From IMG/VR virus record IMGVR_UViG_3300021388_000002: 64,000 bases of DNA; one strand, 5' to 3'. A model generated the notes under the pieces. That model did no database searches and had not been told where the DNA came from. It was given only the letters and a program-made list of their open reading frames with translations. Source of the DNA: a virus (taxonomy: Duplodnaviria > Heunggongvirae > Uroviricota > Caudoviricetes). Positions 5,719 to 19,833 of the stretch are shown in pieces. Position numbers and translations under genes: made by a program. How positions within the stretch are numbered: position 1 is the first letter of the stretch; each line of letters starts with the position of its first letter.

Positions 5719-5748
5719 GCGGGGGCCCTGCGTCTTCAGTTGTGCCTG

Positions 5749-5995: not shown

Positions 5996-6016
5996 GCCAG
6001 CAAATCGTGAGGAGAC

Positions 6017-6168: not shown

Positions 6169-6207
6169 TGGCCCCGGCGGGACTCGAACCCGCACACCCG
6201 GCTTAGG
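6169..6207 (-). pseudogene. 3' half of split tRNA-Arg(CCT)
   Basis: CCTAA GCCGG GTGT GCGGG TTCGAGT CCCGC CGGGGCC A; acceptor strand matches the 5' half at 6712-6744. Confidence 0.85.
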
Positions 6208-6279
6208 TTGGCCCGGCGGGACTCGAACCCGCACGCACGACTTAGGGGGTCGCCGCTCTATCCTCTGAGCTACGAGCCA
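6208..6279 (-). tRNA. tRNA-Arg(CCT), nested copy, C33
   Basis: Cloverleaf, loop CC CCT AA, U1-A72; overlapped by the endonuclease 3' end. Confidence 0.8.
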
Positions 6280-6688: not shown

Positions 6689-6695
6689 GGTTTAT

Positions 6696-6701
6696 AGACT
6701 A
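6696..6701 (-). promoter_or_regulatory. -10 box TAGTCT for the endonuclease (leaderless)
   Basis: 7 nt before ATG 6688. Confidence 0.5.
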
Positions 6702-6711
6702 CCAGCTAGCT

Positions 6712-6744
6712 GGCCGTGGCTCTGATCCATTGAGCTACGGGGCC
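6712..6744 (-). pseudogene. 5' half of split tRNA-Arg(CCT)
   Basis: GGCCCCG TA GCTC AATGGATCA GAGC C ACGGC C, then unrelated sequence. Confidence 0.85.
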
Positions 6745-6935
6745 AGAAGTCCCAGCTTGTCCCCGCTTGTCCCAGCGTCTTGCGGGCCAGGCCGCCACGG
6801 TGTGAAAGTGAACGTGTGCAGCCGGTCTGCTCCGGATCTGTGCGGATAGTGAAACGGTCCCGCCCTGTGGTCCCGGTAACCGGGATTCCTGGCAAATCAG
6901 GGCGGGACCAAAATTCCGGGCGCCCGGAAAATCAG

Positions 6936-7008
6936 AGGCGGGGCGGGGAATCGAACCCCGGTGCGGCGCTTTGCAGGCGCCTGCCTATCCAGACTCGGCC
7001 ACACCGCC
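6936..7008 (-). tRNA. tRNA-Cys(GCA)
   Basis: Cloverleaf, loop CT GCA AA, U73. Confidence 0.9.
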
Positions 7009-7013
7009 AGGAA

Positions 7014-7141
7014 GTGAGAGCAGCAGAGAAGTCCCGTCTAACCTGCCGCTTTGCCGCCGGAGACACCCGGCTTTCGGTATAACCGCCGCTGAGGTACCCG
7101 TCACAGCCCTCTACACATGACGGCAGGCTCGCTGCTCTCAC
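7014..7141 (-). ncRNA. Structured spacer RNA, unknown class
   Basis: Perfect 11-bp terminal stem GTGAGAGCAGC/GCTGCTCTCAC plus inner CCTGCCG/CGGCAGG; fills the Arg-Cys spacer. Confidence 0.5.
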
Positions 7142-7143
7142 CG

Positions 7144-7215
7144 TGCGCCCAGCGGGACTCGAACCCACATCGCCGGCTCCGGAGGCCGGTGCCCTATCCA
7201 TTGAACGATGGGCGC
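7144..7215 (-). tRNA. tRNA-Arg(CCG)
   Basis: Cloverleaf, CCGGC CT CCG GA GCCGG. Confidence 0.92.
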
Positions 7216-7265
7216 GTAAAATCGTGCTATTGCTGGCGGCCCTCCCACGGGACTGGCCGCCGTTC

Positions 7266-7634
7266 TCATGCTCTCTCAGCCGCCAGGTCGTGCTGACCGG
7301 GCCGCCGCCGGGGCACGTGCAGGGCCAGGATGCCGTGCTCATTCAGCAGGTCGCACACGTCGGCCCGGTCGTCGTAGTAGACCCCGATGCCCAGCGACAG
7401 GCACAGCTCCAGCTTGAGCGCGGGCGACTCGCGCGGGTGCGCGAACCAGACCTCGTGCACGGCGGTGCAGGTGATCCCGCGGGCGGCCACATCAGCGGCG
7501 ACCGTGCCACGGGTCCGGTCCCCGACCCCGGAGATGACGTAGACCTCGTGCCCGGCCGCCATCAGCGCGGCGGACAGGTCGCGGAAGTACGGCCAGTGGC
7601 TGCAGACCTGCCAGTAGTCCAGGCCGATCCGCAT
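7266..7634 (-). CDS. Small HAD-like hypothetical protein
   Basis: MRIGLDYW motif-I-like start, YYDDR motif-IV-like, ATG 7634. Confidence 0.6.
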   Translation of the reverse strand: MRIGLDYWQVCSHWPYFRDLSAALMAAGHEVYVISGVGDRTRGTVAADVAARGITCTAVHEVWFAHPRESPALKLELCLSLGIGVYYDDRADVCDLLNEHGILALHVPRRRPGQHDLAAERA

Positions 7635-7650
7635 CTTCTTCTCGTTCACG

Positions 7651-7733
7651 TGGCAGGACCAGGATTTGAACCTGGGAAGCCGAAGCAACCGTTTTACAGA
7701 CGGCCCCTTTTAGCCAGACTCGGGCACCCTGCC
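7651..7733 (-). tRNA. tRNA-Tyr(GTA)
   Basis: Long variable arm, loop CT GTA AA. Confidence 0.9.
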
Positions 7734-7734
7734 T

Positions 7735-7811
7735 TGGGGTGGCTGACCGGACTCGAACCGGCATCCTCTGGACCCACAACCCAGCGCCATAGCCTTTCAG
7801 CCACAGCCACC
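7735..7811 (-). tRNA. tRNA-His(GTG)
   Basis: Encoded G-1, C73 and CCA; loop TT GTG GG. Confidence 0.92.
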
Positions 7812-7812
7812 G

Positions 7813-7885
7813 TGGACGTACCTGGGATCGAACCAGGGACCTTCGCTGTGTGAGAGCGCTGCTCGTTCCGCTGAGCTACACGTCC
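7813..7885 (-). tRNA. tRNA-Val(CAC)
   Basis: Cloverleaf, loop CT CAC AC. Confidence 0.9.
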
Positions 7886-7951
7886 GTGCTGGCAAAACCA
7901 GCTGAATAACAGTTAATTACCGACGAACTTCAGCTAATTAACTGCCATACG

Positions 7952-8023
7952 CGCGCCCAGGAGGACTCGAACCCCCATTGGCGGCTCCGTAGGCCGCAGC
8001 CCTATCCGTTGGACGATGGGCGC
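7952..8023 (-). tRNA. tRNA-Arg(ACG)
   Basis: GCGGC CT ACG GA GCCGC. Confidence 0.92.
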
Positions 8024-8033
8024 TTGTCTTGCG

Positions 8034-8105
8034 TGGGCCCGGGAGGGATCGAACCACCGGCCTCCCCCGTGTCAGGGGGGTGCTCTCCCGCTGAGCTACG
8101 AGCCC
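8034..8105 (-). tRNA. tRNA-Val(GAC)
   Basis: CCCCC CT GAC AC GGGGG. Confidence 0.9.
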
Positions 8106-8227
8106 TTGTGTCCCATCCGCCTGGCTAGTGGCAGCTTCGCCCCGTGACCGGTGGCCACCCGCTCAAAATGGCTGGCGCGCCTTGGCAGCCGGGAGCCAGG
8201 GGGCAAGCAGGAGGGACTGCCTGCTAG

Positions 8228-8302
8228 CGGGGGCGACGGGATTTGAACCCGCGACGTCCAGATCGACAATCTGGCGCTCTGACCGGACTGAGCTACGTCC
8301 CC
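8228..8302 (-). tRNA. tRNA-Asp(GTC)
   Basis: CCAGA TT GTC GA TCTGG, G73. Confidence 0.92.
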
Positions 8303-8381
8303 TGGGGGTAGTGCGGTCGTGCTGATGATGCTAGCCGTGTGAGGCCACGTGGCTATCCGTGCAGTGGCTTGCGGCGCCTCG

Positions 8382-8453
8382 CTCCCCTGGCCAGACTCGA
8401 ACTGGAACCTTCCGGTTAACAGCCGGGCGCTCTGCCAATTGAGCTACAGGGGA
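8382..8453 (-). tRNA. tRNA-Asn(GTT)
   Basis: U1-A72, loop CT GTT AA. Confidence 0.92.
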
Positions 8454-9094
8454 TCGTTTATGAAGGCGGCCATCCGGGCGGGCTGCCGGGAGGGCCGGGC
8501 CAGGATAATGCTCACCATGGCAGCGTTGGCGGCGAGCAGGTACCCCGGGTAGATGAGCCCGGCCGCACTGGGCTGATGCACCAGGACCGCAGCCAGGGTC
8601 AGGGTGCCGCCGAGGCCGAACCAGGCGAAACCCGCCCAGGGCTCCCCGCCGGGATCAGCCCAGCCGTGCCGGTATGTCGGGATGAACGCGGCCAGGTCGG
8701 TCAGCGCCGAGATTGTGATGGCCGCCCAGACAGGCAGTGCCCGCGGGCTGGCGATAGCGATCGCCAGCATCACGATCCCGGCGCCAGCCAGTACGGTGCA
8801 CACGGCATCCAGGCGGCTGAATTCCCGGGTCCCGTACATCCAGGCCACGCAGAGCACGATCATGCAGGCAGCCGCATCCAGGCCGGTATAGAAGCCGCTG
8901 GCCAGCTGCCGGGGTGCTACCGCCAGCTCCCCGGCCGTCCCGGTCGCCGCGGCTGCGGACCACAGCGACCAGGACGATAGCCGCAGGTCAGCGCGCTCGT
9001 CCGGTTTCCGGCTGTCCCGGATCATGATCCAGCTGCCATACAGTGTGGCTGCTGCCGCCATGGCTGCCAGGATGATCGCTGCGGCTCCCGGCAT
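8444..9094 (-). CDS. Multi-pass membrane protein
   Basis: About 6-7 hydrophobic helices; stop falls inside the 5' end of tRNA-Asn. Confidence 0.7.
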   Translation of the reverse strand: MPGAAAIILAAMAAAATLYGSWIMIRDSRKPDERADLRLSSWSLWSAAAATGTAGELAVAPRQLASGFYTGLDAAACMIVLCVAWMYGTREFSRLDAVCTVLAGAGIVMLAIAIASPRALPVWAAITISALTDLAAFIPTYRHGWADPGGEPWAGFAWFGLGGTLTLAAVLVHQPSAAGLIYPGYLLAANAAMVSIILARPSRQPARMAAFINDPL

Positions 9095-9099
9095 CGCTG

Positions 9100-9495
9100 C
9101 TACGCCGCCTGTGTCTCAGCGGCCTGCCGGAACGACTCCAGCTCTGCGCTTGTGAACGGGTGTTCCAGGTATCCCGAATCGGACCATTCCTGGTACTCTA
9201 GCTCGCTGCTGTTGCTGCTGAGCCTGGTGACTGCGTAACGCACGTGGTAACCCGAATCCGTGCTGAGGGTGAAGGCCCCCGGCGTCAGCTCCGTCAGCTC
9301 ATAGCAGGTGACGGACCCCGATCTGGCCCGGGACGTATAGACCGTGCCAATCCTGGGTGGCCATTCGCTGGCGGTCTCGGATTCCACAAAATCCAGCCAG
9401 GAGGGCGTGTTCTCCGGGTTGAGCGCAAATGACAGGACATCCACTGCCGGGAGGCTGATGATGATGCGAAGCCGCTGGCCTGCCCTGGGCTTCAC
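9100..9495 (-). CDS. SRPBCC/polyketide-cyclase-like protein
   Basis: LSFALNPENTPSW...YHVRY..ELEYQEW pattern; coupled to neighbours. Confidence 0.6.
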   Translation of the reverse strand: MKPRAGQRLRIIISLPAVDVLSFALNPENTPSWLDFVESETASEWPPRIGTVYTSRARSGSVTCYELTELTPGAFTLSTDSGYHVRYAVTRLSSNSSELEYQEWSDSGYLEHPFTSAELESFRQAAETQAA

Positions 9496-10310
9496 GAGGA
9501 CGTCAGCCCCAGGTGGTCAGACAGGTCGGCCGGGCGGCTGGATTCCGGGCTGCTGCGGGTGTAGTAGTTGCAGGCCATGACAACCCGGAGCTGCGGGTAC
9601 CCGCTGGGTGGTCTCGGTGCCCGCACGCGCCGGATGAGCTGGTCCACGTAATGGGTATGGCCGCGACCATCAAAAGCCAGGAAATGCCCGGCTTGCGGGT
9701 AGATCACAATGGGGGCCTCTTCCACGGCGGCCAGGCCGCGCACGTCGCCCTGGCCGGCTATGCGCAGCGCCCCGCCGCAGCCGGCCGGATGGGAGGTGAA
9801 GTACAGCAGGCCCTGAACGGGCTGGGAATCGACGTGCAGCTCATACCGTGGGCCTTCTGGCTGCACGTTGAGCACAGCCCCGTACCGGATGTCCTGCGCG
9901 ACGCCCAGTTCCTCGGTGCTGATCTCCTGGGCCAGCTGCTTCAGCGGGCCGCGGTACAGGGTGTCAGCCCAGGGCAGCTGGCGGGCCAGGACGTTCCCGG
10001 GCACGACGTAAGTATCCAGCTGGAGAGCCTTGTCGTCCTCACGTGAGGTTACCGAGGTAGGCGTTATCACCTGGTGCACAACCGCAGCGGGATCGGCGGC
10101 CACAGCCAGCACCTGGCGCTGCCAGCCCGCAGGCAAGAGCGATGTCACGTCCCAGTCCCGCCAGCTGAACCGGGACGTCAGGACGGGTGCCGGGCGATGA
10201 CCAAGCAGCCAGTTCTGGCACGGGCTGGGATGAACCAGCCCTCCCTGGGAGCCGAGCGTGAACGGGACGCCGCATTCAGGGCAGGTACCAAGCCGAGATC
10301 GCGTCTTCAC
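9492..10310 (-). CDS. 2OG-Fe(II) dioxygenase-like protein with N-terminal Cys knuckle
   Basis: YELHVD (HxD), GGAL, HTHYV (distal His), terminal R; GGAGG SD. Confidence 0.7.
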   Translation of the reverse strand: MKTRSRLGTCPECGVPFTLGSQGGLVHPSPCQNWLLGHRPAPVLTSRFSWRDWDVTSLLPAGWQRQVLAVAADPAAVVHQVITPTSVTSREDDKALQLDTYVVPGNVLARQLPWADTLYRGPLKQLAQEISTEELGVAQDIRYGAVLNVQPEGPRYELHVDSQPVQGLLYFTSHPAGCGGALRIAGQGDVRGLAAVEEAPIVIYPQAGHFLAFDGRGHTHYVDQLIRRVRAPRPPSGYPQLRVVMACNYYTRSSPESSRPADLSDHLGLTSS

Positions 10311-10360
10311 TGGTTACCTCCTGTGCCTCACCGATTCCGTAAAGTCATCACCGTAACTCA

Positions 10361-10468
10361 TCAGGACCCGAGCCGCCCTGCCACCGCCTGCTCGGCGATC
10401 CGCCACAGCGGCTCGGTATCGAGCAGCAGCCCATCCATGTCAGCGAGCACGGCAAACTCAGCCATCAT
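10361..10468 (-). pseudogene. N-terminal fragment of a HAD phosphatase
   Basis: VLADMDGLLLDTEPLW motif I, then a stop after about 35 aa. Confidence 0.6.
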
Positions 10469-10583
10469 TACCGCCATTTCCGCCCGGCACTCCCTCCGGG
10501 CTCCCGCCTGTCTCCTGATCGCATCAGGCTTACCGTAACCCGTACGTGATCTTGAGGACAAGGCGGGGCGAAGTGATCACTCT

Positions 10584-10660
10584 TGGTAGCGGGGGCAGGA
10601 TTTGAACCTGCGGCCTCTGGGTTATGAGCCCAGTGTGCTGCCGAACTGCACCACCCCGCG
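10584..10660 (-). tRNA. Initiator tRNA-fMet(CAT)
   Basis: C1-U72 mismatch, GGG/CCC in anticodon stem, encoded CCA. Confidence 0.93.
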
Positions 10661-10661
10661 G

Positions 10662-10748
10662 TCGCGGTGACGGGAATCGAACCCGTGCGGTTTCACCCTA
10701 CGCGCTTGAAAGGCGCGCGGCCCGTTAGCCATCAGGGCCCCCACCGCG
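10662..10748 (-). tRNA. Atypical tRNA with TTC (Glu) anticodon and long variable arm
   Basis: 5-bp D stem GGCCC/GGGCC, 6-bp anticodon stem, loop CT TTC AA, about 13-nt variable region. Confidence 0.7.
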
Positions 10749-10755
10749 CTGACCG

Positions 10756-10830
10756 CGTCCCTGGCGGGCTTTGAACCCGCGTCACCGCCTTGAGAGGACG
10801 GCGTCCTGAGCCTGACTAGACGACAGGGAC
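10756..10830 (-). tRNA. tRNA-Glu(CTC)
   Basis: TCGTCTAG D arm, loop CT CTC AA. Confidence 0.9.
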
Positions 10831-11055
10831 CTGGATACTGCTGCTGAAGCATCGGATAGTAGTTACCTGTGCACGGAGGTGGACAGTTGCTAGCAGCAGA
10901 GTTACGGTGCCCTTACTGTCCGCAACAGAGGAAGGGGCCTCCATGGATTTCGTGACTTACCGGTTCACGACCTACCGGTTCTGACGCCCGGCCCCCGCTG
11001 GGGCAACCCCCCGTAACCACAGGAGCCAGGTCTGCTGCCCGGGACCTGGCTCCTG

Positions 11056-11128
11056 TGCGCCCGGCAGGATTTGAACCCGCGACCATCTGCTTAGAGGGCA
11101 GCCGCTCTGTCCGCTGAACTACGGGCGC
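11056..11128 (-). tRNA. tRNA-Arg(TCT), C33
   Basis: CTGC/GCAG stem closes the 7-nt loop CC TCT AA. Confidence 0.85.
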
Positions 11129-11143
11129 CGGTACAGTGCAGGC

Positions 11144-11374
11144 GTGGCCATCGACCAGGGAATTCTCCGGCAGCTCGCCGAGGCCGACATCGACGCCGTG
11201 CCGGCCGGCGACGGCAGGCTCCTGACCCTGACGCACCGCCCGACCGGGATCACCCTGGAGCGGCCGGTGTTCGCTGACGCGCTGAACGTGAGTCACGGCA
11301 TCGGGGCCTTGCTGACCGAGGCGGGCAAGACCGGGTGGGCCGCCAGGGACTCGAACCCTGAACGTGCAACTTAA
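11144..11374 (+). CDS. Small hypothetical protein, antisense to the tRNA array
   Basis: GC3-rich codons; 3' end overlaps tRNA-Lys. Confidence 0.4.
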   Translation: MAIDQGILRQLAEADIDAVPAGDGRLLTLTHRPTGITLERPVFADALNVSHGIGALLTEAGKTGWAARDSNPERAT

Positions 11375-11407
11375 AAGGATGCTGCTCTGCCATTGAGCTA
11401 GCGGCCC
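11336..11407 (-). tRNA. tRNA-Lys(TTT)
   Basis: Cloverleaf, loop CT TTT AA. Confidence 0.9.
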
Positions 11408-11408
11408 G

Positions 11409-11448
11409 TGGGCCGGGCGGGGCTTGAACCCGCGACCCCCGTCTTAGG
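11409..11448 (-). pseudogene. 3' half of split tRNA (anticodon uncertain, Lys-like body)
   Basis: (CC)TAA GACGG GGGTC GCGGG TTCAAGC CCCGC CCGGCCC A; pairs with the 5' half at 11949-11980. Confidence 0.8.
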
Positions 11449-11522
11449 TGGCACGGGTGGGACTTGAACCCACGTACGGCCGATTATGAGTCGGCTGCTT
11501 GGACCAGCTCAGCTACCGCGCC
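11449..11522 (-). tRNA. tRNA-CAT (Met or Ile2), nested copy
   Basis: GCCGA CT CAT AA TCGGC; HNH stop lies in its anticodon loop. Confidence 0.85.
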
Positions 11523-11933
11523 TCGGCCGAACTGGACATCCCGGGCACACTTAATAGAGCAAGAGGACGGATTGCCGCCCTTGACCAGGTGCGTCTGCCT
11601 GCGCAGCCGCTCGAAAGATTTACCGCACCCGGGGCAGACCAGCATAACTACAGCCGCTGGTTTATGCCCCTTCCTGATGTTGGCTGCTCGTGCCAGAGAC
11701 TGGATGTTCGCCGGATCATCATTAGACGGATCGTCGTCTATATGATCAGCGTCCACCTCCTGGGCTGGAATAGCGCCAAGCCGGATTGACAGCAGGTAAC
11801 GAGCGAAGCTCATCGTTGTCCGGTGATGTGGGCTGGTGAGAACAACGATCTTCCTGTTCTGCTTCTGGTCCAGATAGGGCCCATATACCGTGTACGCAGT
11901 AAACGGGGCTGGATGGGGCAGAAGGCTGGCCAC
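11484..11933 (-). CDS. HNH endonuclease with C-terminal Cys motifs
   Basis: VDADHIDDDPSNDDPANIQ HNH core, CPGC and CSIKC. Confidence 0.85.
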   Translation of the reverse strand: MASLLPHPAPFTAYTVYGPYLDQKQNRKIVVLTSPHHRTTMSFARYLLSIRLGAIPAQEVDADHIDDDPSNDDPANIQSLARAANIRKGHKPAAVVMLVCPGCGKSFERLRRQTHLVKGGNPSSCSIKCARDVQFGRGAVAELVQAADS

Positions 11934-11939
11934 GCGATC

Positions 11940-11945
11940 ATTATA
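11940..11945 (-). promoter_or_regulatory. -10 box TATAAT for the HNH (leaderless)
   Basis: Consensus hexamer 6 nt before GTG 11933. Confidence 0.65.
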
Positions 11946-11948
11946 CGT

Positions 11949-11980
11949 GACGTCACTCTGACCAGCTGAGTTACCGGCCC
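11949..11980 (-). pseudogene. 5' half of split tRNA
   Basis: GGGCCGG TA ACTC AGCTGGTCA GAGT G ACGTC. Confidence 0.8.
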
Positions 11981-11985
11981 GTGCG

Positions 11986-12057
11986 TGGCGGAAGGTGGGA
12001 TCGAACCACCGGCCTCTCCCTTATGAGGGGATCGCTCTGCCCCTGAGCTATACCGCC
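11986..12057 (-). tRNA. tRNA-CAT (Met or Ile2)
   Basis: TCCC CT CAT AA GGGA. Confidence 0.88.
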
Positions 12058-12061
12058 GTGG

Positions 12062-12135
12062 TGGGCGAGGGAGGATTTGAACCTCCGACCTTTTCCTTAT
12101 CAGGGAACTGCGAGAACCGGCTACGCTGCTCGCCC
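12062..12135 (-). tRNA. tRNA-Ile(GAT)
   Basis: Loop CT GAT AA. Confidence 0.88.
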
Positions 12136-12146
12136 ATGGTGCTGCG

Positions 12147-12234
12147 CGGAGGAGGTGGGGATCGAACCCACACGGGAGTTACCCCTGACCGTTTTCGGGA
12201 CGGTATCCGGCGCCAGCCCTCGGATGGCCCCTCC
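12147..12234 (-). tRNA. tRNA-Ser(CGA), C33
   Basis: GGAGG acceptor, long variable arm, ACCGT CC CGA AA ACGGT, G73. Confidence 0.85.
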
Positions 12235-12312
12235 AGGTGAAACAGGCAGTGCTGGCAAGGGCGGGTCTCCGACCGCGCGCACTTACATGCCAGCACCAGG
12301 TTCAGGATAAAG

Positions 12313-12399
12313 CGGAGGATGTGAGATTTGAACTCACGAGGGTGTTACCCCAACGCGCTTTCCGGGCGCGCGCCATAGGCCGGACTAGGCGAATCCTCC
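12313..12399 (-). tRNA. tRNA-Ser(GGA), C33
   Basis: CGCGC CC GGA AA GCGCG, long variable arm. Confidence 0.88.
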
Positions 12400-12403
12400 C
12401 GGT

Positions 12404-12751
12404 CTAGCTGAGCCACCAGCGGTACCAGCGCCAGATCACCCAGGCCGCAACCAGCCCGAAGACGCGAACCCTGCCGCCGATCATCCAGATGATGGCCAGG
12501 CTCCCGGCGATGGTGATCCAGCTGCTCAGCTTCTGCCAGCGCCAGCCGGGCAGCCGCTCCAGCTTGCGGACCTGGCCCGTCCAGGTGTTGACCGCACCGC
12601 GCTTGCGCCAGATCCGGAAATGCAGGTGAGCGCTGAGCCGGCGGTCCTGGTCAGACCAGGTGCCCTTGCCGGCGAGCCAGTGCCCGGTGCGCACGCGCAG
12701 GTTGTGCTGCGTGGCGGTACGCGGCGGCTCACCCCAGGACCGTCGCGGCAC
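12404..12751 (-). CDS. Trp-rich small membrane protein
   Basis: C-terminal hydrophobic helices; fills the Ser-Ser spacer. Confidence 0.5.
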   Translation of the reverse strand: MPRRSWGEPPRTATQHNLRVRTGHWLAGKGTWSDQDRRLSAHLHFRIWRKRGAVNTWTGQVRKLERLPGWRWQKLSSWITIAGSLAIIWMIGGRVRVFGLVAAWVIWRWYRWWLS

Positions 12752-12776
12752 ATCCGGGTGATACCCGCCAGGAGCG

Positions 12777-12865
12777 CGGAGGATACAGGATTTGAACCTG
12801 TGAGGGACGCGATGCCCAACCTCATTAGCAGTGAGGCGCCATAGACCGGACTAGGCGAATCCTCC
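12777..12865 (-). tRNA. tRNA-Ser(GCT)
   Basis: CCTCA CT GCT AA TGAGG. Confidence 0.92.
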
Positions 12866-12879
12866 TTGGCCGTGCTCAG

Positions 12880-12964
12880 TGTCCGAGGAGAGATTTGAAC
12901 TCTCACGCTCCGTGGGGAGCACCAGGGCCTGAACCTGGCGTGTCTGCCGTTCCACCACCCGGAC
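12880..12964 (-). tRNA. tRNA-Leu(CAG)
   Basis: CCAGG TT CAG GC CCTGG, long variable arm. Confidence 0.92.
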
Positions 12965-13066
12965 GGGGGAGACCACATTGCCGGTTTTCGCTGACGGTTG
13001 TGGCGGATGCCGCATGAGGTTCAGTCAGGCGGTCCAGCGTCAGGTCAAGACAGGATGTGATCTCAG

Positions 13067-13139
13067 AGTGGGTGACGGGGGTCGAACCCGCGGCCTCTAC
13101 CTTGGCAAGGTAGCGCGCTGCCAGCTGCGCTACACCCAC
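13067..13139 (-). tRNA. tRNA-Gly(GCC)
   Basis: CTACC TT GCC AA GGTAG, U73. Confidence 0.92.
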
Positions 13140-13149
13140 ATGTACTGCG

Positions 13150-13189
13150 AGCCCCACAGCGGGATCGAACCGCTGACCTTCGCCTTACG
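13150..13189 (-). pseudogene. 3' half of split tRNA-Thr(CGT)
   Basis: CGT AA GGCGA AGGTC AGCGG TTCGATC CCGCT GTGGGGC T. Confidence 0.88.
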
Positions 13190-13261
13190 AGCCTGCTCGG
13201 AGGATCGAACTCCGACTATTTCCTTACCAAGGAGGCGTGCTGCCATTGTCACTAAGCAGGC
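13190..13261 (-). tRNA. tRNA-Thr(GGT), nested copy
   Basis: GCCTGCT/AGCAGGC acceptor, loop TT GGT AA; anticodon stem has mismatches. Confidence 0.78.
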
Positions 13262-13662
13262 GTGTTCAGCTCATACTGCTCGGCCAGCCTGATCCCCTTC
13301 TGCTGGTTGTTCCTGGCCGGCTCCAGCCTGAGCGATCCGAGACGGCTTCCCACGTCCTCGACCGGCACCAGGTAGACCTTGGTGTTCTGCGGGCAGTAAA
13401 CGCCGAAGTACTCAGCTTCTCCCCGGTAAGGCCGGGTGCTGCCGCCGCGGTGAGCGTGCGAGCTGGCTGCGTTGAAATCTATGCGGCCATCTCGCATCCA
13501 GCCCGTTTTGCACTGGATGCGCAGGAACTTACCCCCATCGTCCACCACCATGTCGTAGCGACGGCCGTTCCCGAAAGGGATCAGTACGCTGTCGTAGACC
13601 TGGAGAAGGGCTGCCATGACGATGGCTTCGGTCCGATCGCCGATGCTGTGTGTATTAGGCAC
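13252..13662 (-). CDS. PD-(D/E)XK endonuclease, I-Ssp6803I-like
   Basis: IGDRTE...RYDMVVD...RIQCKT...Y.GEAEYFGVY; stop inside the nested tRNA-Thr. Confidence 0.88.
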   Translation of the reverse strand: MPNTHSIGDRTEAIVMAALLQVYDSVLIPFGNGRRYDMVVDDGGKFLRIQCKTGWMRDGRIDFNAASSHAHRGGSTRPYRGEAEYFGVYCPQNTKVYLVPVEDVGSRLGSLRLEPARNNQQKGIRLAEQYELNTPA

Positions 13663-13668
13663 ACCATC

Positions 13669-13674
13669 ATCTTA
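13669..13674 (-). promoter_or_regulatory. -10 box TAAGAT for the endonuclease (leaderless)
   Basis: 6 nt before GTG 13662. Confidence 0.55.
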
Positions 13675-13677
13675 CAC

Positions 13678-13709
13678 AGGCGACGCTCTGCGGGCTGAGC
13701 TAGCGGGGC
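13678..13709 (-). pseudogene. 5' half of split tRNA-Thr(CGT)
   Basis: GCCCCGC TA GCTC AGCCCGCA GAGC G TCGCC T. Confidence 0.88.
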
Positions 13710-13813
13710 GGGAAGGCTGCCGCTGAGTATCTGGGACAGCCTGTATCAGATGACGCAGCTTCTGTGCGTCAGGTGGGCCAGCCCGGCGGGCCGGCAGCCA
13801 GTGAACTAGAGGT

Positions 13814-14269
13814 ATGCGAGCTTCCCCCGGAGACGTCTTCGCGGCCCTGTTCGCCGCGCACCAGGCGGGCGATCACTGGGCCCAGACCTCAGCGCAGGCC
13901 ACCACCAAGGGCCAGCCTGGTGCGCGGGGCCGCCGGGCCTGCGCGGCGCATGTCGCGACGCTGACCGCGGGCAAGGCCGCCGCCCTGGCCGCGCTGCAGC
14001 TGTCCGGGCGCCAGATCAGGCCCGGCCGGGCGGTGATAGCCCTGGCCGCTGACGCCGCCTCGCATTACCTGGCGGACCGGCGCAGCTCTGAGCCGCTGAC
14101 CGGGCTGGCCCGGCTGGCGCACCTGGCCGGGCGGGGCGAGTTCTGGGCACTGGGCCAGCCGCGGCCCGGCCGGGACGACAACCCCGTGCTCGGGACCGGC
14201 AGTTACGCGCTGGATCAGGCGTTCCACATCGGGTGCCTGTGGGCAGCGTCCGCCTGGATGGCATGCTAG
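13814..14269 (+). CDS. DUF3307-like membrane protein
   Basis: HQAGDHWAQT, HVATL, SHYLADRR, LDQAFH His/Asp motifs. Confidence 0.75.
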   Translation: MRASPGDVFAALFAAHQAGDHWAQTSAQATTKGQPGARGRRACAAHVATLTAGKAAALAALQLSGRQIRPGRAVIALAADAASHYLADRRSSEPLTGLARLAHLAGRGEFWALGQPRPGRDDNPVLGTGSYALDQAFHIGCLWAASAWMAC

Positions 14270-14344
14270 CTGGGGTCTGAGGGCTCGAACCTCACGCCTC
14301 CGGGACCAAGGCCCGGCGCTCTGCCAGCGATGAGCTACACCCCA
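14270..14344 (-). tRNA. tRNA-Gln(TTG), C33
   Basis: U1-A72, G73, CCGGG CC TTG GT CCCGG. Confidence 0.85.
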
Positions 14345-14348
14345 CCAG

Positions 14349-14423
14349 AGCCGCCTGCCGGGCTTGAACCGGCCACCTGCTGATTACAAGTCAGCCGCTC
14401 TGCCAGCGATGAGCTAAGGCGGC
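14349..14423 (-). tRNA. tRNA-Thr(TGT)
   Basis: GCTGA CT TGT AA TCAGC. Confidence 0.92.
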
Positions 14424-14773
14424 ACCGTCTTGTGCCCGGGGCGCAGGAAAACCCGGGCCTTTGCGGCTCCGGGCTCCTGCGTTCGTGACTGTCAGGCGTG
14501 GTAAAACATCAGGTCGGTTTCGGTGGTAACCATGACCGCCTCCTCCCGTCAGTAACCATTGGTAGTGGAACCGTAACTCAGAAACAGGTAACTGAAAGGG
14601 TAGTTCTGTCTTACCCAGGACCACAGGGGCCGCAGGTGATCTCGCTGCCGAGGGGCTGGCACATGGAACAGGATCAGGGGACTCCGGCCGCGCGCGCCGT
14701 TATGAGCGAGGTATCCCTGACCGGGCCGGACGGGCGCCTTCGCTCCCCGTTCCCGGCGTCGTGACCGTCCTGC

Positions 14774-14852
<79 letters not shown>

Positions 14853-14859
<7 letters not shown>

Positions 14860-14917
14860 TCGAACGGGGCACCTGCTCATTACGAGTGAGCTGTTCTTCC
14901 GGCTGAACTACCGGGGC
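14853..14917 (-). pseudogene. Truncated tRNA-Thr(CGT) lacking the 3' acceptor strand, fused into tRNA-Leu(GAG)
   Basis: GCCCCGG, D arm, GCTCA CT CGT AA TGAGC, then a T arm whose last 7 nt are the Leu 5' end. Confidence 0.8.
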
Positions 14918-15025
14918 AGCAGCAGCCTGCGAGACCAGGGTCGCAAACTCCTGGCACACCGCACAGGCGTCCCTGTTCCCGGTCCCGCCAGGTAATGCCC
15001 GCGTAGACCGGTCTCGGCTGCCTAG

Positions 15026-15102
15026 CTGCGGTGCCTGGAATCGAACCAGGGTTATCTCCGGGTCCAGAGCCCGGCGGGTTTGCCAGCGTCCCCCACACCG
15101 CA
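15026..15102 (-). tRNA. tRNA-Gln(CTG)
   Basis: CCGGG CT CTG GA CCCGG, U1-A72. Confidence 0.88.
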
Positions 15103-15119
15103 TCGTGAAGCAAAAACCG

Positions 15120-15202
15120 TGGGCGAGGAGGGAGTTGAACCCTCACGCCGGTTAAGGCACTGGTACTTGAGGCCAGCGCGTCTGCCGTTCCGCCACCCGC
15201 CC
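15120..15202 (-). tRNA. tRNA-Leu(CAA)
   Basis: Loop CT CAA GT, long variable arm. Confidence 0.9.
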
Positions 15203-15206
15203 GGGT

Positions 15207-16172
15207 CTAGCACCGGCCCTGGTAGGCGCCCGCCAGGAACGTCGTCCAGGCGTCCCAGTCGGTGCCGTCATGAGACAGCTCGATCGCGGCCCCGGCGTTG
15301 CCCAGCGAGGCGTAGGTGGACAGCGCCCCGTGGTTGGGATTGATCTGCCAGTACCCGCGCTCGCCCACACCGCCGGTTGCGAACTGATTGCCACCAGATT
15401 CGGCCTGGGCGATCTCAGCCGCCATGAACGCCTCGTCCGGGGCGCCGCCCGCCTGGTCCCATAGCGCCTCCAGCCCGGCGCAGGACAGCGTGCCGGACAG
15501 CGCGGTCATGGTGCGCGCCGCAGTGGCGGCCAGGGCAGCCGGGACCAGGGCCGGGGTGGCGTCACCCGGGATGGCCAGCACCTCGCCCGCCATGATCAGG
15601 CTGGGATTGGCGATGACCGCGCGGTTGGCGTCCCAGATCCGGTGCCAGGCTGCCGCGCTGCCCAGTGTCTTCAGCGCGATCGCGGACAGCGTGTCACCCG
15701 GCTGGACGGTGTAGTGCCGGCTGCCCGGGGCCGCCTCGTGGTGCACGACCAGGGCGTCCGTGGTGATGCGGTCCGCCGGGATGTGCGGCGGGAGCGGCGT
15801 GGCGTATATCCGCCAGTCCTGCACCACCTGCTCGGCGTAGGGCTCATCCAGCGCCGGGGTAACCGGGTCCGTCACGGGCGGCGGGGCGAAACTGGCCAGC
15901 TGTGCGGTGATCTGGCCGCCAGGCTGTGCCGGGACCTGCTGGCTCCAGACGGCTGGCGCTGCCACCGGGGTGAAGACGGCCATGGCCGGGGACTGAGGGG
16001 CCAGGAGAGCACCCGCGGCCAGCGCGGCCGGAGCTGCCTTGACCGCCGCGCCCTGGGCCATGGCCTGCGCAGCTGTGGGAGCTGCATGCTGCGGCTGGCT
16101 GTACGGGGCCCTGCGGTGCCTGCCGGGGCTCACGGATGCTCTCCTGACCGGCGGCCGGAGGGGGAGGGACAT
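15207..16172 (-). CDS. LysM + lysozyme/transglycosylase-like protein
   Basis: YTVQPGDTLSAIA LysM; IAQAESGGN...GYWQIN catalytic-type motif. Confidence 0.85.
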   Translation of the reverse strand: MSLPLRPPVRRASVSPGRHRRAPYSQPQHAAPTAAQAMAQGAAVKAAPAALAAGALLAPQSPAMAVFTPVAAPAVWSQQVPAQPGGQITAQLASFAPPPVTDPVTPALDEPYAEQVVQDWRIYATPLPPHIPADRITTDALVVHHEAAPGSRHYTVQPGDTLSAIALKTLGSAAAWHRIWDANRAVIANPSLIMAGEVLAIPGDATPALVPAALAATAARTMTALSGTLSCAGLEALWDQAGGAPDEAFMAAEIAQAESGGNQFATGGVGERGYWQINPNHGALSTYASLGNAGAAIELSHDGTDWDAWTTFLAGAYQGRC

Positions 16173-16255
16173 AAATGGCCGCCTGAACGGGTCACGAGCA
16201 GATCATGAGGGCCGTTCAGGCCAGGCCGGGAGCGTAAGAACCCGGAAAGGTCTTG

Positions 16256-16330
16256 TGCGCCGGGAGAGATTTGAACTCCCGTCCATCTGATTAAGGGTCA
16301 GACGCTCTACCAGGCTGAGCTTACCGGCGC
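16256..16330 (-). tRNA. tRNA-Lys(CTT), C33
   Basis: TCTGA CC CTT AA TCAGA; 3-nt acceptor-D linker. Confidence 0.87.
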
Positions 16331-16341
16331 GTAGTACACAG

Positions 16342-16414
<73 letters not shown>

Positions 16415-16623
16415 GAGGTCCCGGGGCCGTGCCGGTCCAGAGCCTGCCCCAGCCGCTGACCGTGTGCGTCACGGCGCTAGCTGAGCAGGGTGCCGACACC
16501 GTTGTGAGGTGCCCCGGGAGGCATGAGACCCGGACCCCGGCCGAGGTCAGGCTTTACCGGGGCAGCGCTACCCTCCCGGTCACTGGCTCCCATTCACGGG
16601 GCCTGCACCAGCGTCATGCCTAG

Positions 16624-16695
16624 TGGGACCTGGAGATTCTGAGACTCCGACCTACGGTATTTCACACCGTCGCTCTGCCGCTGAGCTAAGGCCCC
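16624..16695 (-). tRNA. tRNA-Phe(GAA) with non-canonical T loop
   Basis: ACGGT GT GAA AT ACCGT; T arm GGAG-TCTCAGAAT-CTCC lacks TTC. Confidence 0.72.
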
Positions 16696-16789
16696 ATGGA
16701 TTTTCCGTTAGCGGAGCTAATGACTGCTGTCCCCGCTTGTGTTAGCCTCGCCGTAACCCGCACATATCGTCCAGTTACGGAATGTGATA

Positions 16790-18016
16790 ATGGCCCCGGT
16801 TACCGCTCCTGCCCGGCCCGCTCGTGTCACCTACCGGGACGTCTTCGCAGTCCGGGAGTTCACCGTGCTGTGGGCGGCCCAGCTGGCCTCGATCGCCGGG
16901 GACCAGTTCGCCCGGATCGCCCTGACGGTACTGGTTTATGACCGGACCCGGAGCGGGCTGCTGGCCGCGGCCACCTTCACCGCGTCCATGCTGCCTATGT
17001 GCCTGGGCGGTATCGGCTTGAGCTGGCTGGCTGACCGCTATCCCCGACGCACCGTGATGGTGGCCTGCGACGCCGTCAGTTTCGTGCTCGTGCTGATCAT
17101 GGCCATCCGCGGGATGCCGCTGGCGGTGCTGGTGGCCCTGCTGGCTGCGGTGTCGCTGGTGTCGGCCCCGTTCGCCTCAGCGCGGGGAGCCGCCAACCGG
17201 GACGTGCTCGGCGCGGAGGCGTACCCGCTCGGCATGGCGGTTACCCTGTCCACCTACCAGGCCGGCCAGGTGGCTGGGTTCGCGGTGGGCGGGGTCCTGA
17301 CCGGGCTGGCCGGGCCACGCGGGGCGCTGCTCGCCGACGCGGCCACGTTCGCCGCCTCGGCGGCACTGATCCTGGCCGGGGTCCGGAGCCGCCCGGCAGG
17401 TAACCCGGCAGCCCAGCTGGAGGGCTCCCAGCTGCTGACCGGGCTGCGGGCCGTGCTCAGCAGCCGGGTTGCGCGGCTGTCCCTGCTGGCCGGGTGGCTG
17501 CCCGCATTTGTCGCGGTCACAGACGGGATCGCCGTGCCGCTGGCGCACTCGCTGGGCGGCGGGCCCGTCACCGCCGGGTGCCTGCTCGCTGCTACTGCCG
17601 CCGGGGTGACCGCCGGGCTGCTGCTATGGCCCCGGCTGGTGCCTGCCACCCGTGGCACCCGCCTGGCTGTGCTGCTCGCCGGGATATCCGCTGCCGTGCT
17701 GGCCGGGTTCGCCGGGCGGCCACCGCTGGCCGGGGCACTGGCCCTGCTGGCGGTTTCCGGGGCTTTCACCTGCTACATGACCTCAGCCAACGCGGTGTTC
17801 GCGGAAGCCGTGCCGGCCGAGCACCTGGGCGCCGCGTTTGGTGTCGGCAACGCCGGGATCATGGCCGGGCAGTCGCTGGCCATCGTGGCGGCCGGGGCCA
17901 TGCTCACCTGGCTCACCCCGCCTGCTGTCATCGCGGTCTGGGGCGGCCTCGGGGTTCTCGCCGCACTGGCGCTGGCCGGGCCGTGGCACCGCCAGCTGGG
18001 TGCCGGCACTGCCTGA
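16790..18016 (+). CDS. MFS transporter
   Basis: About 12 TM helices, motif A-like LADRYPRRTVMV. Confidence 0.88.
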   Translation: MAPVTAPARPARVTYRDVFAVREFTVLWAAQLASIAGDQFARIALTVLVYDRTRSGLLAAATFTASMLPMCLGGIGLSWLADRYPRRTVMVACDAVSFVLVLIMAIRGMPLAVLVALLAAVSLVSAPFASARGAANRDVLGAEAYPLGMAVTLSTYQAGQVAGFAVGGVLTGLAGPRGALLADAATFAASAALILAGVRSRPAGNPAAQLEGSQLLTGLRAVLSSRVARLSLLAGWLPAFVAVTDGIAVPLAHSLGGGPVTAGCLLAATAAGVTAGLLLWPRLVPATRGTRLAVLLAGISAAVLAGFAGRPPLAGALALLAVSGAFTCYMTSANAVFAEAVPAEHLGAAFGVGNAGIMAGQSLAIVAAGAMLTWLTPPAVIAVWGGLGVLAALALAGPWHRQLGAGTA

Positions 18017-18186
18017 TCCGCAGGTATGGCCGTATAAATGGCAACGTGTTACGGTGACACTACTTTCCGTACGGAGCAGAGGGAGAAGACCATGAGGACG
18101 CATCTGTTCGGCTAGCCGCCCGTTCAGGCAGAGCCGGGGTATCCAGGAGGGAGCCCCGGCTCTGCGCACGTCACCAGGAATTCTCC

Positions 18187-18263
18187 TGGTCGGGACGGCG
18201 GGACTCGAACCCGCGGTTTCCGCGCCCCAGACGCGGCGCGCTGCCAGACTGCGCTACATCCCG
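18187..18263 (-). tRNA. tRNA-Pro(TGG), C33
   Basis: C1-G72, CCGCG TC TGG GG CGCGG, encoded CCA. Confidence 0.88.
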
Positions 18264-18451
18264 CTGTGTGGTGCTCCCGCTCTGCGCCGGCCGCCATTCG
18301 CCAGGGACCAGGCCCTGGTGTTACCGACCCGGACGTCCTTCTCCTGCACACCCCGGCCGGGCCTCGGTACGAACGCACCACACACAAGCTGCGATCACTG
18401 GCAGAGCGTGGCCCTTCACTGCCGCTGCACTTAGAGCCGGTGATCGCTGAG

Positions 18452-18525
18452 TCGGAGCGGCGGTATTTGAAACCGCGACCTTCCGGCCCCCAGCCGGACG
18501 CTCTGCCAACCTGAGCCACGCTCCG
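18452..18525 (-). tRNA. tRNA-Pro(GGG)
   Basis: TCCGG CT GGG GG CCGGA. Confidence 0.9.
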
Positions 18526-18529
18526 TTAC

Positions 18530-18654
18530 GGTACGACGCTGGACTTCAGTCAGCTCCCTCTCCAGCAAGGGGCGCCCCATCGTTGCCTGGTTATGAGCCA
18601 GGACGAGTAAGAAGACGCATGCCGCGAACAGGGGGTTACCCTGCACGTCGTACC
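18530..18654 (-). ncRNA. Structured spacer RNA carrying a CAT anticodon-like stem-loop
   Basis: 9-bp terminal stem GGTACGACG/CGTCGTACC; CCTGG CTCATAA CCAGG at 18586-18602. Confidence 0.55.
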
Positions 18655-18657
18655 TAG

Positions 18658-18731
18658 TCGGGAAGGGGAGATTTGAACTCCCGGCCTCTCGCCCCCGAAG
18701 CGAGCGCGCTGCCAAGCTGCGCCACTTCCCG
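18658..18731 (-). tRNA. tRNA-Pro(CGG)
   Basis: CTCGC TT CGG GG GCGAG. Confidence 0.92.
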
Positions 18732-18873
18732 CTGTACCGGCTTTTCCCGTTTACTGGTGCTGGCCAGGCACTCCAGACGTGACTAGGGAGGAGGATTTAA
18801 GGGATTTAGCTGCCGCCCGGGTACCCGGAGATACCCACCAGTTGCCAAGTGCGTCCATCCCGCCGGTACCTCG

Positions 18874-18947
18874 TGGAGCTACGGAGATTTGAACTCCGGA
18901 CCTTTTCCTTGCGAAGGAACTGCGCTACCGGACTGCGCTATAGCCCC
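18874..18947 (-). tRNA. tRNA-Ala(CGC)
   Basis: G3-U70, loop TT CGC AA. Confidence 0.9.
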
Positions 18948-19049
18948 AGGTGCACGCCGGGCGCTTCCGTCCCGGTTATCAATTGGCGCCGTGCCCGCCA
19001 GATGCCAGCCACCCCAGGTACTCATCGCGATGTTTCGCCAGGGCGCTTA

Positions 19050-19178
19050 ACCACCTTTAATGCGGTGCTCTGCCATTTGAGCTACCGGCATGATAATGGT
19101 GCGCTTTTCCGCAACGCGTACTTTGCTCACCACTATCTCCCAAATGCCGGGACGGGATTCGGACCCGCATCTTCCGCC
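19050..19178 (-). ncRNA. Circularly permuted tRNA-like module C with extended acceptor arm
   Basis: T arm GCGGG TCCGAAT CCCGT, then CCGGCAT [52 nt] ATGCCGG, then D arm TA GCTC AAATGGCA GAGC. Confidence 0.7.
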
Positions 19179-19179
19179 G

Positions 19180-19252
19180 TGGAGCCTAGGAGACTCGAAC
19201 TCCTGACCTTCTGCGTGCCACGCAGACGCGCTACCAGCTGCGCCAAGGCCCC
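19180..19252 (-). tRNA. tRNA-Ala(GGC)
   Basis: G3-U70, TCTGC GT GGC AC GCAGA. Confidence 0.92.
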
Positions 19253-19254
19253 TC

Positions 19255-19320
19255 ACGGGTGCTCTATCCGCTGAGCTACAGATCGATGACCTGGCAGGAT
19301 TCGGACCTGCGACCTCCCGC
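19255..19320 (-). ncRNA. Circularly permuted tRNA-like module B
   Basis: GCGGG AGGTC GCAGG TCCGAAT CCTGC CAGGTC ATC GATCTG TA GCTC AGCGGATA GAGC A CCCGT. Confidence 0.78.
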
Positions 19321-19323
19321 TAA

Positions 19324-19388
19324 GACGGCGCTCCAGCCATCGAGCTTCTGGCCGTGGCCAGGCGGGATTCGGACCCGCGCCCTCCGTC
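19324..19388 (-). ncRNA. Circularly permuted tRNA-like module A
   Basis: GACGG AGGGC GCGGG TCCGAAT CCCGC CTGGCC AC GGCCAG AA GCTC GATGGCTG GAGC G CCGTC. Confidence 0.78.
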
Positions 19389-19396
19389 GCTTATGG

Positions 19397-19454
19397 GGTG
19401 CTGCCCCCGGACCGGGCTGTCTAGCAACGCCAGTCCGGGCCGGGAGGCAGCACC
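19397..19454 (-). other. Long hairpin directly 5' of the permuted modules
   Basis: GGTGCTGCC...GGCAGCACC terminal stem. Confidence 0.6.
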
Positions 19455-19483
19455 ATGTGGACGGGGGATGGCGCCCCCGTCAT

Positions 19484-19500
19484 TGATGCTCACGCTATGG
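19484..19500 (-). repeat. 17-bp motif CCATAGCGTGAGCATCA, copy 2, next to TTGACA (19504-19509)
   Basis: Exact inverted copy of 6133-6149. Confidence 0.85.
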
Positions 19501-19554
19501 TCTTGTCAATATTCAGGTGATATACCCGCGCGGCTCTCGCGTTGCTGGTATTCG

Positions 19555-19627
19555 CAGGGACCGGGAGAGTCGAACTCCCACCTTCACAGCTTTGGAGGCT
19601 GTCGCTCACCATCTGAGCCAGATCCCT
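19555..19627 (-). tRNA. tRNA-Trp(CCA), first gene of the array
   Basis: A1-U72, G73, ACAGC CT CCA AA GCTGT. Confidence 0.9.
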
Positions 19628-19642
19628 ATGCACTTATGCGCT

Positions 19643-19679
19643 AAAAAACCGCCCTCCGGGAGCTTTCCCTGGGGGCGGT
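19643..19679 (-). terminator. Intrinsic terminator upstream of the first tRNA (attenuator)
   Basis: ACCGCCC...GGGCGG hairpin followed by T6 on the minus strand. Confidence 0.8.
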
Positions 19680-19701
19680 CGCCTTCGCGTGGCTTCGGCA
19701 G

Positions 19702-19797
19702 CTACGTGGCGACCCTCCCGGTCCCCCAGGGCAGGCAGCGCTGAATTGACAGGCTGTGATTCCTGTCTTCGCGCTTGGCTGCCGGGTAGGACGTCAT
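19702..19797 (-). CDS. 31-aa leader peptide MTSYPAAKREDRNHSLSIQRCLPWGTGRVAT
   Basis: ATG 6 nt after the -10 box; ORF overlaps the antiterminator arm and stops 22 nt before the terminator. Confidence 0.7.
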   Translation of the reverse strand: MTSYPAAKREDRNHSLSIQRCLPWGTGRVAT

Positions 19798-19803
19798 GTA
19801 CCC

Positions 19804-19833
19804 AGCATACGGCATGTCCGTTAGAGTATGCAA
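19804..19833 (-). promoter_or_regulatory. Promoter of the tRNA array: -35 TTGCAT, 18-nt spacer, -10 TATGCT
   Basis: Consensus-like boxes directly upstream of the leader ATG. Confidence 0.7.

Follow-up and report, generated by a model that had tools for sequence, protein, structure and literature searches.

A short reading frame with nearly every amino acid heads a phage tRNA array: a candidate ribosome-mediated transcription attenuator

The purpose of phage tRNA genes, and the moment at which they come into use, have been disputed for about fifty years. Codon compensation, the replacement of degraded host tRNAs and the evasion of tRNA-cleaving defences are the reasons under discussion (PMC10264068, PMC11555353). 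The virus record IMGVR_UViG_3300021388_000002 (Caudoviricetes) raises the question in a concrete form. In the window, that is, the whole 64,000-nt stretch of DNA analysed here (part of a contig of 164,629 bp; G+C content about 70%), a minus-strand tRNA array begins with tRNA-Trp(CCA) only 15 nt beyond the T-run of what has the form of an intrinsic terminator. As this gap leaves no space for a separate tRNA-Trp promoter, the hairpin must be either leaky or regulated; what, then, could decide whether RNA polymerase reaches the tRNA genes? The leader that contains the hairpin occupies a 317-nt gap between tRNA-Trp and a sugar epimerase/dehydratase gene that starts at 19945 and is divergent from the array, and it includes a 31-codon open reading frame in which nearly every amino acid is represented. 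The answer that we favour, and which we regard as probable rather than assured, is that the leader, lying between a promoter and tRNA-Trp, acts as a ribosome-mediated attenuator of transcription and reports the general speed of decoding.

Read on the minus strand, the leader has the parts that a preliminary description of this DNA, made from its letters, had assigned to it (Table 1). That is, the two promoter boxes and the spacing between them, the 31-codon frame, its 19 kinds of amino acid (Phe is absent, and 16 kinds have appeared by codon 21) and its codons that are rare for the phage's own genes (AGG twice, TCA, ATT and AAT) are all in place, as is the terminator between the frame and the first tRNA, a hairpin that a simple terminator scanner misses because of its bulges. 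The same description had held that codons 23-25 of the frame are complementary to the terminator 5′ arm, so that two folds of the transcript would be mutually exclusive. The complementarity is exact: CCCTGGGGG is the reverse complement of CCCCCAGGG (19675-19667), and GGTCGCC pairs with GGCGACC (19683-19677). Because both pairings use the region of the terminator 5′ arm, the terminator and the alternative fold, hereafter the antiterminator, share a strand. In the window the antiterminator pairing brings an energy gain of -13.8 kcal/mol, versus -6.0 kcal/mol in dinucleotide shuffles (P = 0.007).

Table 1. Features of the leader and of the tRNA array that it heads, in window coordinates
Feature	Position	Strand	Remarks
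-35-like hexamer TTGCAT	19828..19833	-	part of the conserved TTGCATACT
-10-like hexamer TATGCT	19804..19809	-	18 nt past the -35 box; 6 nt ahead of the ATG
Leader reading frame	19702..19797	-	ATG 19797-19795; 31 sense codons; TAG 19704-19702
Hairpin P1 within the frame	19721..19792	-	core GACAGG/CCTGTC, 19767-19762 and 19753-19748; extended stem around the core
Antiterminator 5′ strand	19708..19731	-	CCCTGGGGG 19731-19723; GGG 19719-17; GGTCGCC 19714-08; in the frame's last 10 codons
Shared strand (antiterminator 3′ strand and terminator 5′ arm)	19666..19683	-	paired in both alternative folds
Terminator	19643..19680	-	bulged hairpin 19680-19647, -24 kcal/mol, into T6 tract 19648-19643
tRNA-Trp(CCA)	19554..19627	-	first gene of the array
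tRNA array	6206..19627	-	37 genes by ARAGORN plus tRNA-Phe(GAA) from Rfam
tRNA-Phe(GAA)	16624-16695	-	Rfam, 46 bits; missed by ARAGORN; unusual T-loop

Relatives of the locus were fetched by three routes, namely the neighbouring epimerase gene, a 16-mer from the frame's end and a conserved element downstream of tRNA-Trp, the last of which leaves the leader sequence itself unconstrained. Since synteny guided their retrieval and frame composition played no part in it, they provide an unbiased replicate of an observation that had been made post hoc on the window. With the window counted, 17 distinct leaders were found in metagenomic phage contigs, all heading syntenic tRNA arrays (the window, L214, L212, L223, L220, L221, L003, L091, L005, L004, L219, L386, L369, L399, L354, L352 and L390); a further locus, L213, has the peptide of L212 with a different promoter. 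A Trp-first tRNA array lies downstream of the leader wherever the locus extends far enough, and nhmmer did not find the leader in four epimerase-bearing relatives that have no array at this place (L001, L012, L215 and L216-218). The geometry of frame, antiterminator and terminator, which the preliminary description had expected homologous arrays to share, recurs in all related leaders.

Mobile DNA repeatedly enters the junction between the leader and the first tRNA gene, and the leader is never removed (L212, L220 and L354). In L220 (about 1690-2220, plus strand) the order is a 5′ fragment of tRNA-Trp, an HNH-endonuclease gene and a second, complete tRNA-Trp. A similar HNH-encoding insert is located in L354 downstream of the hairpin and before tRNA-Trp, and in L212 an insert of about 400 nt with a lower G+C content lies between the hairpin and tRNA-Trp.

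Is the frame translated at all? An open run of about 33 codons is unremarkable at the G+C content of the window, where it would arise by chance about half the time (an estimate from base composition), and both P1 and the terminator are conserved as RNA. The leader might thus be a structured non-coding RNA with a protein, a small molecule or a tRNA as its ligand, in which an open frame is incidental. This explanation has to contend with several features of the frame. It is open in all 17 distinct leaders, at a length of 31-38 codons (93-114 nt), and across 11 leaders it contains no stop codon, whereas the +1 and +2 frames contain 18 and 4, respectively. The distance from the start codon to P1 is 27, 30 or 33 nt, and since these distances and the frame lengths all keep the frame, several independent insertions or deletions must each have been a multiple of three. 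In L223 and L220 a CCTGGA motif has moved by 1 nt relative to the frame, and the adjacent TAG has moved along with it and remains in frame; in the nearest relative of the window the stop codon is TAA rather than TAG. Furthermore, the G+C content at third codon positions (GC3, 0.74-0.89) exceeds that at first and second positions (GC1 and GC2) in every leader, which is usual in genes of high-G+C organisms.

The start signals point in the same direction. A hexamer of the form ANNNT is found 6-7 nt ahead of an ATG or GTG in all 12 leaders tabulated, a spacing between -10 box and start codon that is expected for leaderless actinobacterial mRNAs, and TTGCATACT stands at an equal distance in L214, L212, L223, L220 (TTGCATAC only) and L003. 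L221 has an additional strong promoter about 70 nt upstream together with GGAGGA ahead of its ATG, and in six clade-C leaders the promoter (TTGACA-17-TAnnnT) lies 70-90 nt upstream and the start codon is preceded by a Shine-Dalgarno motif of the AGGAG type. The leaderless start that the preliminary description had proposed therefore fits, by position, within the clade of the window, and gives way to an upstream promoter with a Shine-Dalgarno motif in those six relatives. Two kinds of start signal serving one frame would be hard to explain unless the frame were translated. In addition, when positions 19000-20200 were searched against Rfam (E up to 10), no family, T-box included, reached its gathering score in the leader; the best match, ctRNA_pGA1 (21.8 bits versus 45 required, E = 0.12), covers the terminator only, and the rest are at chance level. 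The sequence of the P1 loop varies between relatives, and, as described next, amino-acid diversity is confined to this one frame and is held there against drift. Altogether, a non-coding leader with an incidental frame appears very improbable.

What is conserved in the frame is not its sequence. The ratio of non-synonymous to synonymous differences (pN/pS) is 0.5-1.3, differences are spread evenly over the codon positions, and the peptide alignment has no invariant column and two near-invariant ones. A pN/pS near 1 would be equally expected of a non-coding region; in a translated frame it suggests that the peptide evolves almost neutrally. Nevertheless, the leaders contain 17-20 kinds of amino acid each (mean 18.4 over the 17 leaders), and all 20 are present in L223, within 31 codons, and in L399, within 38. 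Windows drawn from the phage's own proteins contain 13.4-14.2 kinds on average, with 19 or more kinds in 31 residues occurring in about 0.1% of them (P = 0.001) and 20 kinds in 31 residues in none of 200,000 draws. Shuffling of bases within codon positions gave 15-16 kinds on average, with per-leader P values from 0.0003 to 0.26, and the other two frames of the leader DNA encode 12.4 and 13.6 kinds on average. When drift from one leader to another was simulated at the observed divergence, about 15 kinds remained versus the 18-20 observed (P < 0.03 in 17 of 19 comparisons). Rare residues relocate instead of vanishing; Trp, for example, lies near codon 24 in most leaders and at codon 4-7 in L214, L223 and L220. 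These comparisons indicate that selection keeps the amino-acid diversity of the frame while its sequence drifts, and they bear out the test that had been set beforehand, namely that the leader frames of related arrays would keep their diversity and vary in sequence. The share of rare codons is about 20% in the frame and 11% in phage genes, an approximately two-fold excess that is consistent between leaders, modest, and individually marginal. The idea that the absent Phe codon mirrors an absent tRNA-Phe was discarded, as Rfam finds a tRNA-Phe(GAA) in the array; with this gene added to the ARAGORN set, the 38 tRNA genes of the array serve all 20 amino acids.

A peptide with so few constraints also argues against the idea that the frame encodes a small functional product with a leaky terminator of its own, and that its position beside the array is unrelated to regulation. 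Promoter, frame and terminator do have the appearance of a cassette, and mobile DNA lies between this cassette and tRNA-Trp in L212, L220 and L354. However, the cassette is present only alongside the array, tRNA-Trp lacks room for its own promoter, and the terminator arm has its complement in the last part of the frame; we consider an independent peptide cassette the least probable of the explanations discussed here.

Both hairpins and the alternative pairing are retained among the relatives. The core of P1 is kept in all of them; one of its columns shows a double change (G-C to A-U, in the window), and the outer stem CAGCA/TGCTG has become CAGCG/CGCTG in L221. The terminator hairpin has a folding energy of -22 to -31 kcal/mol in all leaders. 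Over 12 relatives, 80.8% of its alignment cells are paired and its covariation score is 0.225, versus 0.130 in shuffles; these pairing and covariation values were reached by none of 500 shuffles and are both well above those of slid controls. The antiterminator was examined by folding each transcript up to the terminator loop, i.e. before the terminator 3′ arm is made. In the absence of that arm, every leader folds such that the 3′ end of its frame is paired to the terminator 5′ arm; between the partner strand and the stop codon 2-8 nt remain, except in L212 and L213, where the strand spans the stop codon. The shared strand is paired both ways in 12 of the 12 leaders tabulated, and likewise in the six clade-C leaders. 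A single consensus antiterminator was rejected, since the partner strand differs between clades; for the same reason the tests relied on each sequence separately, and in 14 of the 17 leaders the pairing beats dinucleotide shuffles of the upstream 70 nt. L214 offers a particular case: its CCGCC core, otherwise invariant, has a U in place of a C, and G-to-A changes in both the terminator 3′ arm and the antiterminator strand compensate for it. Finally, when a ribosome footprint was masked in the folds of six leaders, a mask on the stop codon gave the terminator and a mask at codon 10 gave the full antiterminator. No clear anti-antiterminator was found, and an untranslated leader should for this reason read through.

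From these elements the following mechanism can be proposed. Polymerase starting at the putative promoter would transcribe the 31-codon frame, and ribosomes would initiate at or near its 5′ end. The last third of the frame would act as the antiterminator 5′ strand, competing for the 5′ arm of the terminator hairpin. A fast ribosome that reaches the stop codon would cover this strand, allowing the terminator to form and transcription to stop before tRNA-Trp. Conversely, slow translation, a stall within the first two thirds of the frame, or the lack of any ribosome would let the antiterminator form first, and polymerase would read through into the tRNA genes. The frame appears to be held by selection at a near-complete amino-acid set and at about twice the usual share of rare codons, and because it has nearly every amino acid as well as rare codons, the time of transit would report general decoding capacity and not the availability of a single amino acid. 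This would amount to a negative feedback loop acting on the supply of tRNA. The preliminary description had gone further, in that stalling on almost any tRNA was thought to free the antiterminator. This is an overstatement, as a stall beyond about codon 17-28 would no longer free the antiterminator; in the window the effective zone has 17 codons with 13 kinds of amino acid if the antiterminator strand is taken to start with the outer helix, or 22 codons with 17 kinds if the inner helix alone counts.

Several observations weigh against attenuation as just outlined. Residues in the last 8-19 codons could not signal under the simple model. Of the codons in phage genes, 96% can be read by the tRNAs of the array, as can 29 of the 31 in the leader; given that coverage, any match between leader codons and tRNAs is uninformative. 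Because the ribosome-free default is predicted to be read-through, regulation would require tight coupling of ribosome and polymerase. The promoter of the window agrees with the sigma-70 consensus at 7 of 12 positions, a weak match, and was not called by a promoter scanner; we accept it only because of its position and the conservation of the motif in six relatives. In L214 and L004 the antiterminator pairing does not surpass shuffles, and in L223/L220 it is marginal (P = 0.10); when one antiterminator architecture was imposed on 12 sequences, 41 of 500 shuffles reached its score, so that column-wise covariation was not significant. In L219 (2025-2210, minus strand) the TAG stop codon is replaced by TTA, so that the frame runs through the terminator hairpin; it extends over 62 codons to the start of tRNA-Trp, and was called as a 61-residue gene in the source metagenome. 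Moreover, the 13-kb array of the window includes protein genes, one of them on the opposite strand, so the array may not be one transcription unit and a single leader may not control all 38 tRNAs, although the preliminary description had it switch on the complete set.

The remaining difficulty concerns termination itself, as in 9 of the 17 distinct leaders the hairpin is followed by an interrupted tract and not by five or more consecutive T. Mycobacterial RNA polymerase requires a U-tract in vitro, and NusG aids termination at poor tracts (PMC3993855). It is therefore conceivable that the frame is translated and the folds are real while the hairpin is no terminator, acting instead on the processing or stability of the precursor (through RNase cleavage or 5′ maturation of tRNA-Trp, for example) or as a pause site for polymerase. 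The stretch between the hairpin and the tRNA has a conserved ACAACTNCA-like motif in many relatives, and such a role could account for it. On the other hand, a canonical run of 5-6 T directly follows the stem at eight loci (the window, L212, L213, L223, L399, L354, L352 and L390). Runs of this kind are rare at about 70% G+C, and a hairpin followed by a T-run is the textbook form of an intrinsic terminator. A hairpin that does not terminate is thus, in our judgement, unlikely, albeit the most serious of the competitors to attenuation.

If the leader is an attenuator, what would it respond to in the infected cell? One extension of the attenuator reading, which we put forward tentatively and with more doubt than conviction, is that the phage encodes in this leader a sensor for the total supply of aminoacyl-tRNA, which would complete a feedback loop. 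If host tRNAs ran short, were cut by anticodon nucleases or retron effectors, or failed to keep pace with the codon demand of the phage, ribosomes would lag on the test frame, and the phage would transcribe its own complete tRNA set. Were this true, phage tRNA arrays would be an inducible counter-measure and not a constitutive supplement, and the target of selection would be the amino-acid make-up of a peptide, not its sequence. A switch that opens the array under slow decoding would tie tRNA expression directly to translational need, and the various proposals for phage tRNAs would become testable with an element of 200 nt. The mode of selection would be an unusual one, in which the sequence drifts almost freely and the amino-acid set stays near its maximum. 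As a compact natural part, the leader could also be used to report general translation speed in high-G+C bacteria.

The surroundings of the leader give some indication of its source. Structural genes in the window encode a head-tail adaptor, a peptidase and a 1,926-residue protein that is taken to be the tape measure, and one tail-region protein has matches restricted to Streptomyces and Thermobifida phages. The source is likely an uncultured phage of an actinomycete, a host assignment that derives solely from these Streptomyces and Thermobifida phage matches. A blastn search of the window region against cultured phages gave no match, and the leaders of other clades matched cultured phages through the tRNA only, with no leader homologue among them. 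An exact search of IMG/VR for the window terminator gave no match either. In a pattern scan of metagenomes, all of the matches listed were due to chance and none was real by nhmmer, and a pattern scan of genome contigs gave chance matches only, with no prophage copy or host found. Within the array of the window, no further copies of the leader or of the promoter motif were found.

Two protein genes lie inside the array, one encoding an MFS-transporter-like protein (16784-18016, plus strand) and one a LysM/SLT lysozyme-like protein (15207-16172, minus strand). At the far end of the array a Ro60/TROVE protein gene (3933-5711, minus strand) is located, with a YrlA (Y-RNA-like) element just upstream of it (5743-5867, minus strand); the YrlA match is below the Rfam gathering score (47.6 versus 69 bits). 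Sub-threshold YrlA matches were also obtained for the conserved element 3′ of tRNA-Trp (19257-19392, minus strand; GCGAGAGCCG ... AGCGTGAGCA ... GACGGGG/CCCCGTC), which is present in all related loci and is sufficiently conserved to have served as the search anchor for related arrays. On the other side of the leader, a 13-bp inverted repeat (GCACGGCCTCCGC ... GCGGAGGCCGTGC) that contains the GGAGG of the divergent epimerase gene is kept in the 5′ untranslated region of that gene in L001, L003-L006, L012, L213 and L215 (e.g. L003, about 5925-6000). The window lacks this repeat, which could be a translational control hairpin.

How does the leader compare with known systems? The leaders of classical amino-acid operons (trp, his, leu and ilv; e.g. 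trpL, hisL and leuL, with actinobacterial examples in PMC1262725) likewise have a leader frame and mutually exclusive antiterminator and terminator hairpins. In both cases the stop codon adjoins the antiterminator 5′ strand, and there is an in-frame hairpin that may be a pause site. By sequence, the phage leader has the upstream short frame, the terminator ahead of the genes and the strand-sharing antiterminator that a terminating ribosome could cover. Unlike the classical leaders, it has no run of a single amino acid, and no single amino acid is enriched in its frames; it leads to tRNAs rather than biosynthetic enzymes; and it has no clear anti-antiterminator, so that its ribosome-free state would be read-through. 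The Rfam search mentioned above likewise does not place it among T-box or other Rfam RNA leaders. A different resemblance is to the mycobacterial polycysteine leaderless small open reading frames (bioRxiv 10.1101/834739), which are also actinobacterial leaderless first-cistron frames in which pausing controls downstream expression. Those frames, however, act on the translation of the next gene, whereas the phage leader has no coding gene downstream and its output would be the terminator; in addition, phage leader frames have 0-2 Cys codons and are thus not Cys-rich. Literature searches found no published leader-peptide control of tRNA genes. Such control is known for some bacterial genes, and for tRNA genes there is probably no published account.

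The closest parallel is the whiB7/wblC leader of Actinobacteria, in which efficient translation of a uORF (upstream open reading frame) leads to a Rho-independent terminator and translation stress leads to an antiterminator (PMC10274678; PMC7157823). whiB7/wblC is activated by knock-down of amino-acid biosynthetic genes, tRNAs and tRNA synthetases; the M. smegmatis whiB7 uORF contains every amino acid but Cys; and its composition sets which starvations are sensed, since removal of the Trp or His codons weakens the matching response (PMC10274678). The phage leader would share with this system the likely host phylum, a short and diverse frame, a terminator with a competing antiterminator and the predicted logic. 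It differs in that it gates tRNAs and not a transcription factor gene, and in that its frame is shorter than the whiB7 uORF as described and, in the clade of the window, leaderless-looking. A further difference lies in Ala, which accounts for 4 of the 31 residues in the window frame and for 25-40% of whiB7 uORFs, and the combination of an Ala-rich uORF with a WhiB gene is not seen at the phage locus. In the phage leader it is the diversity of the frame, rather than Ala-richness, that looks like the selected trait.

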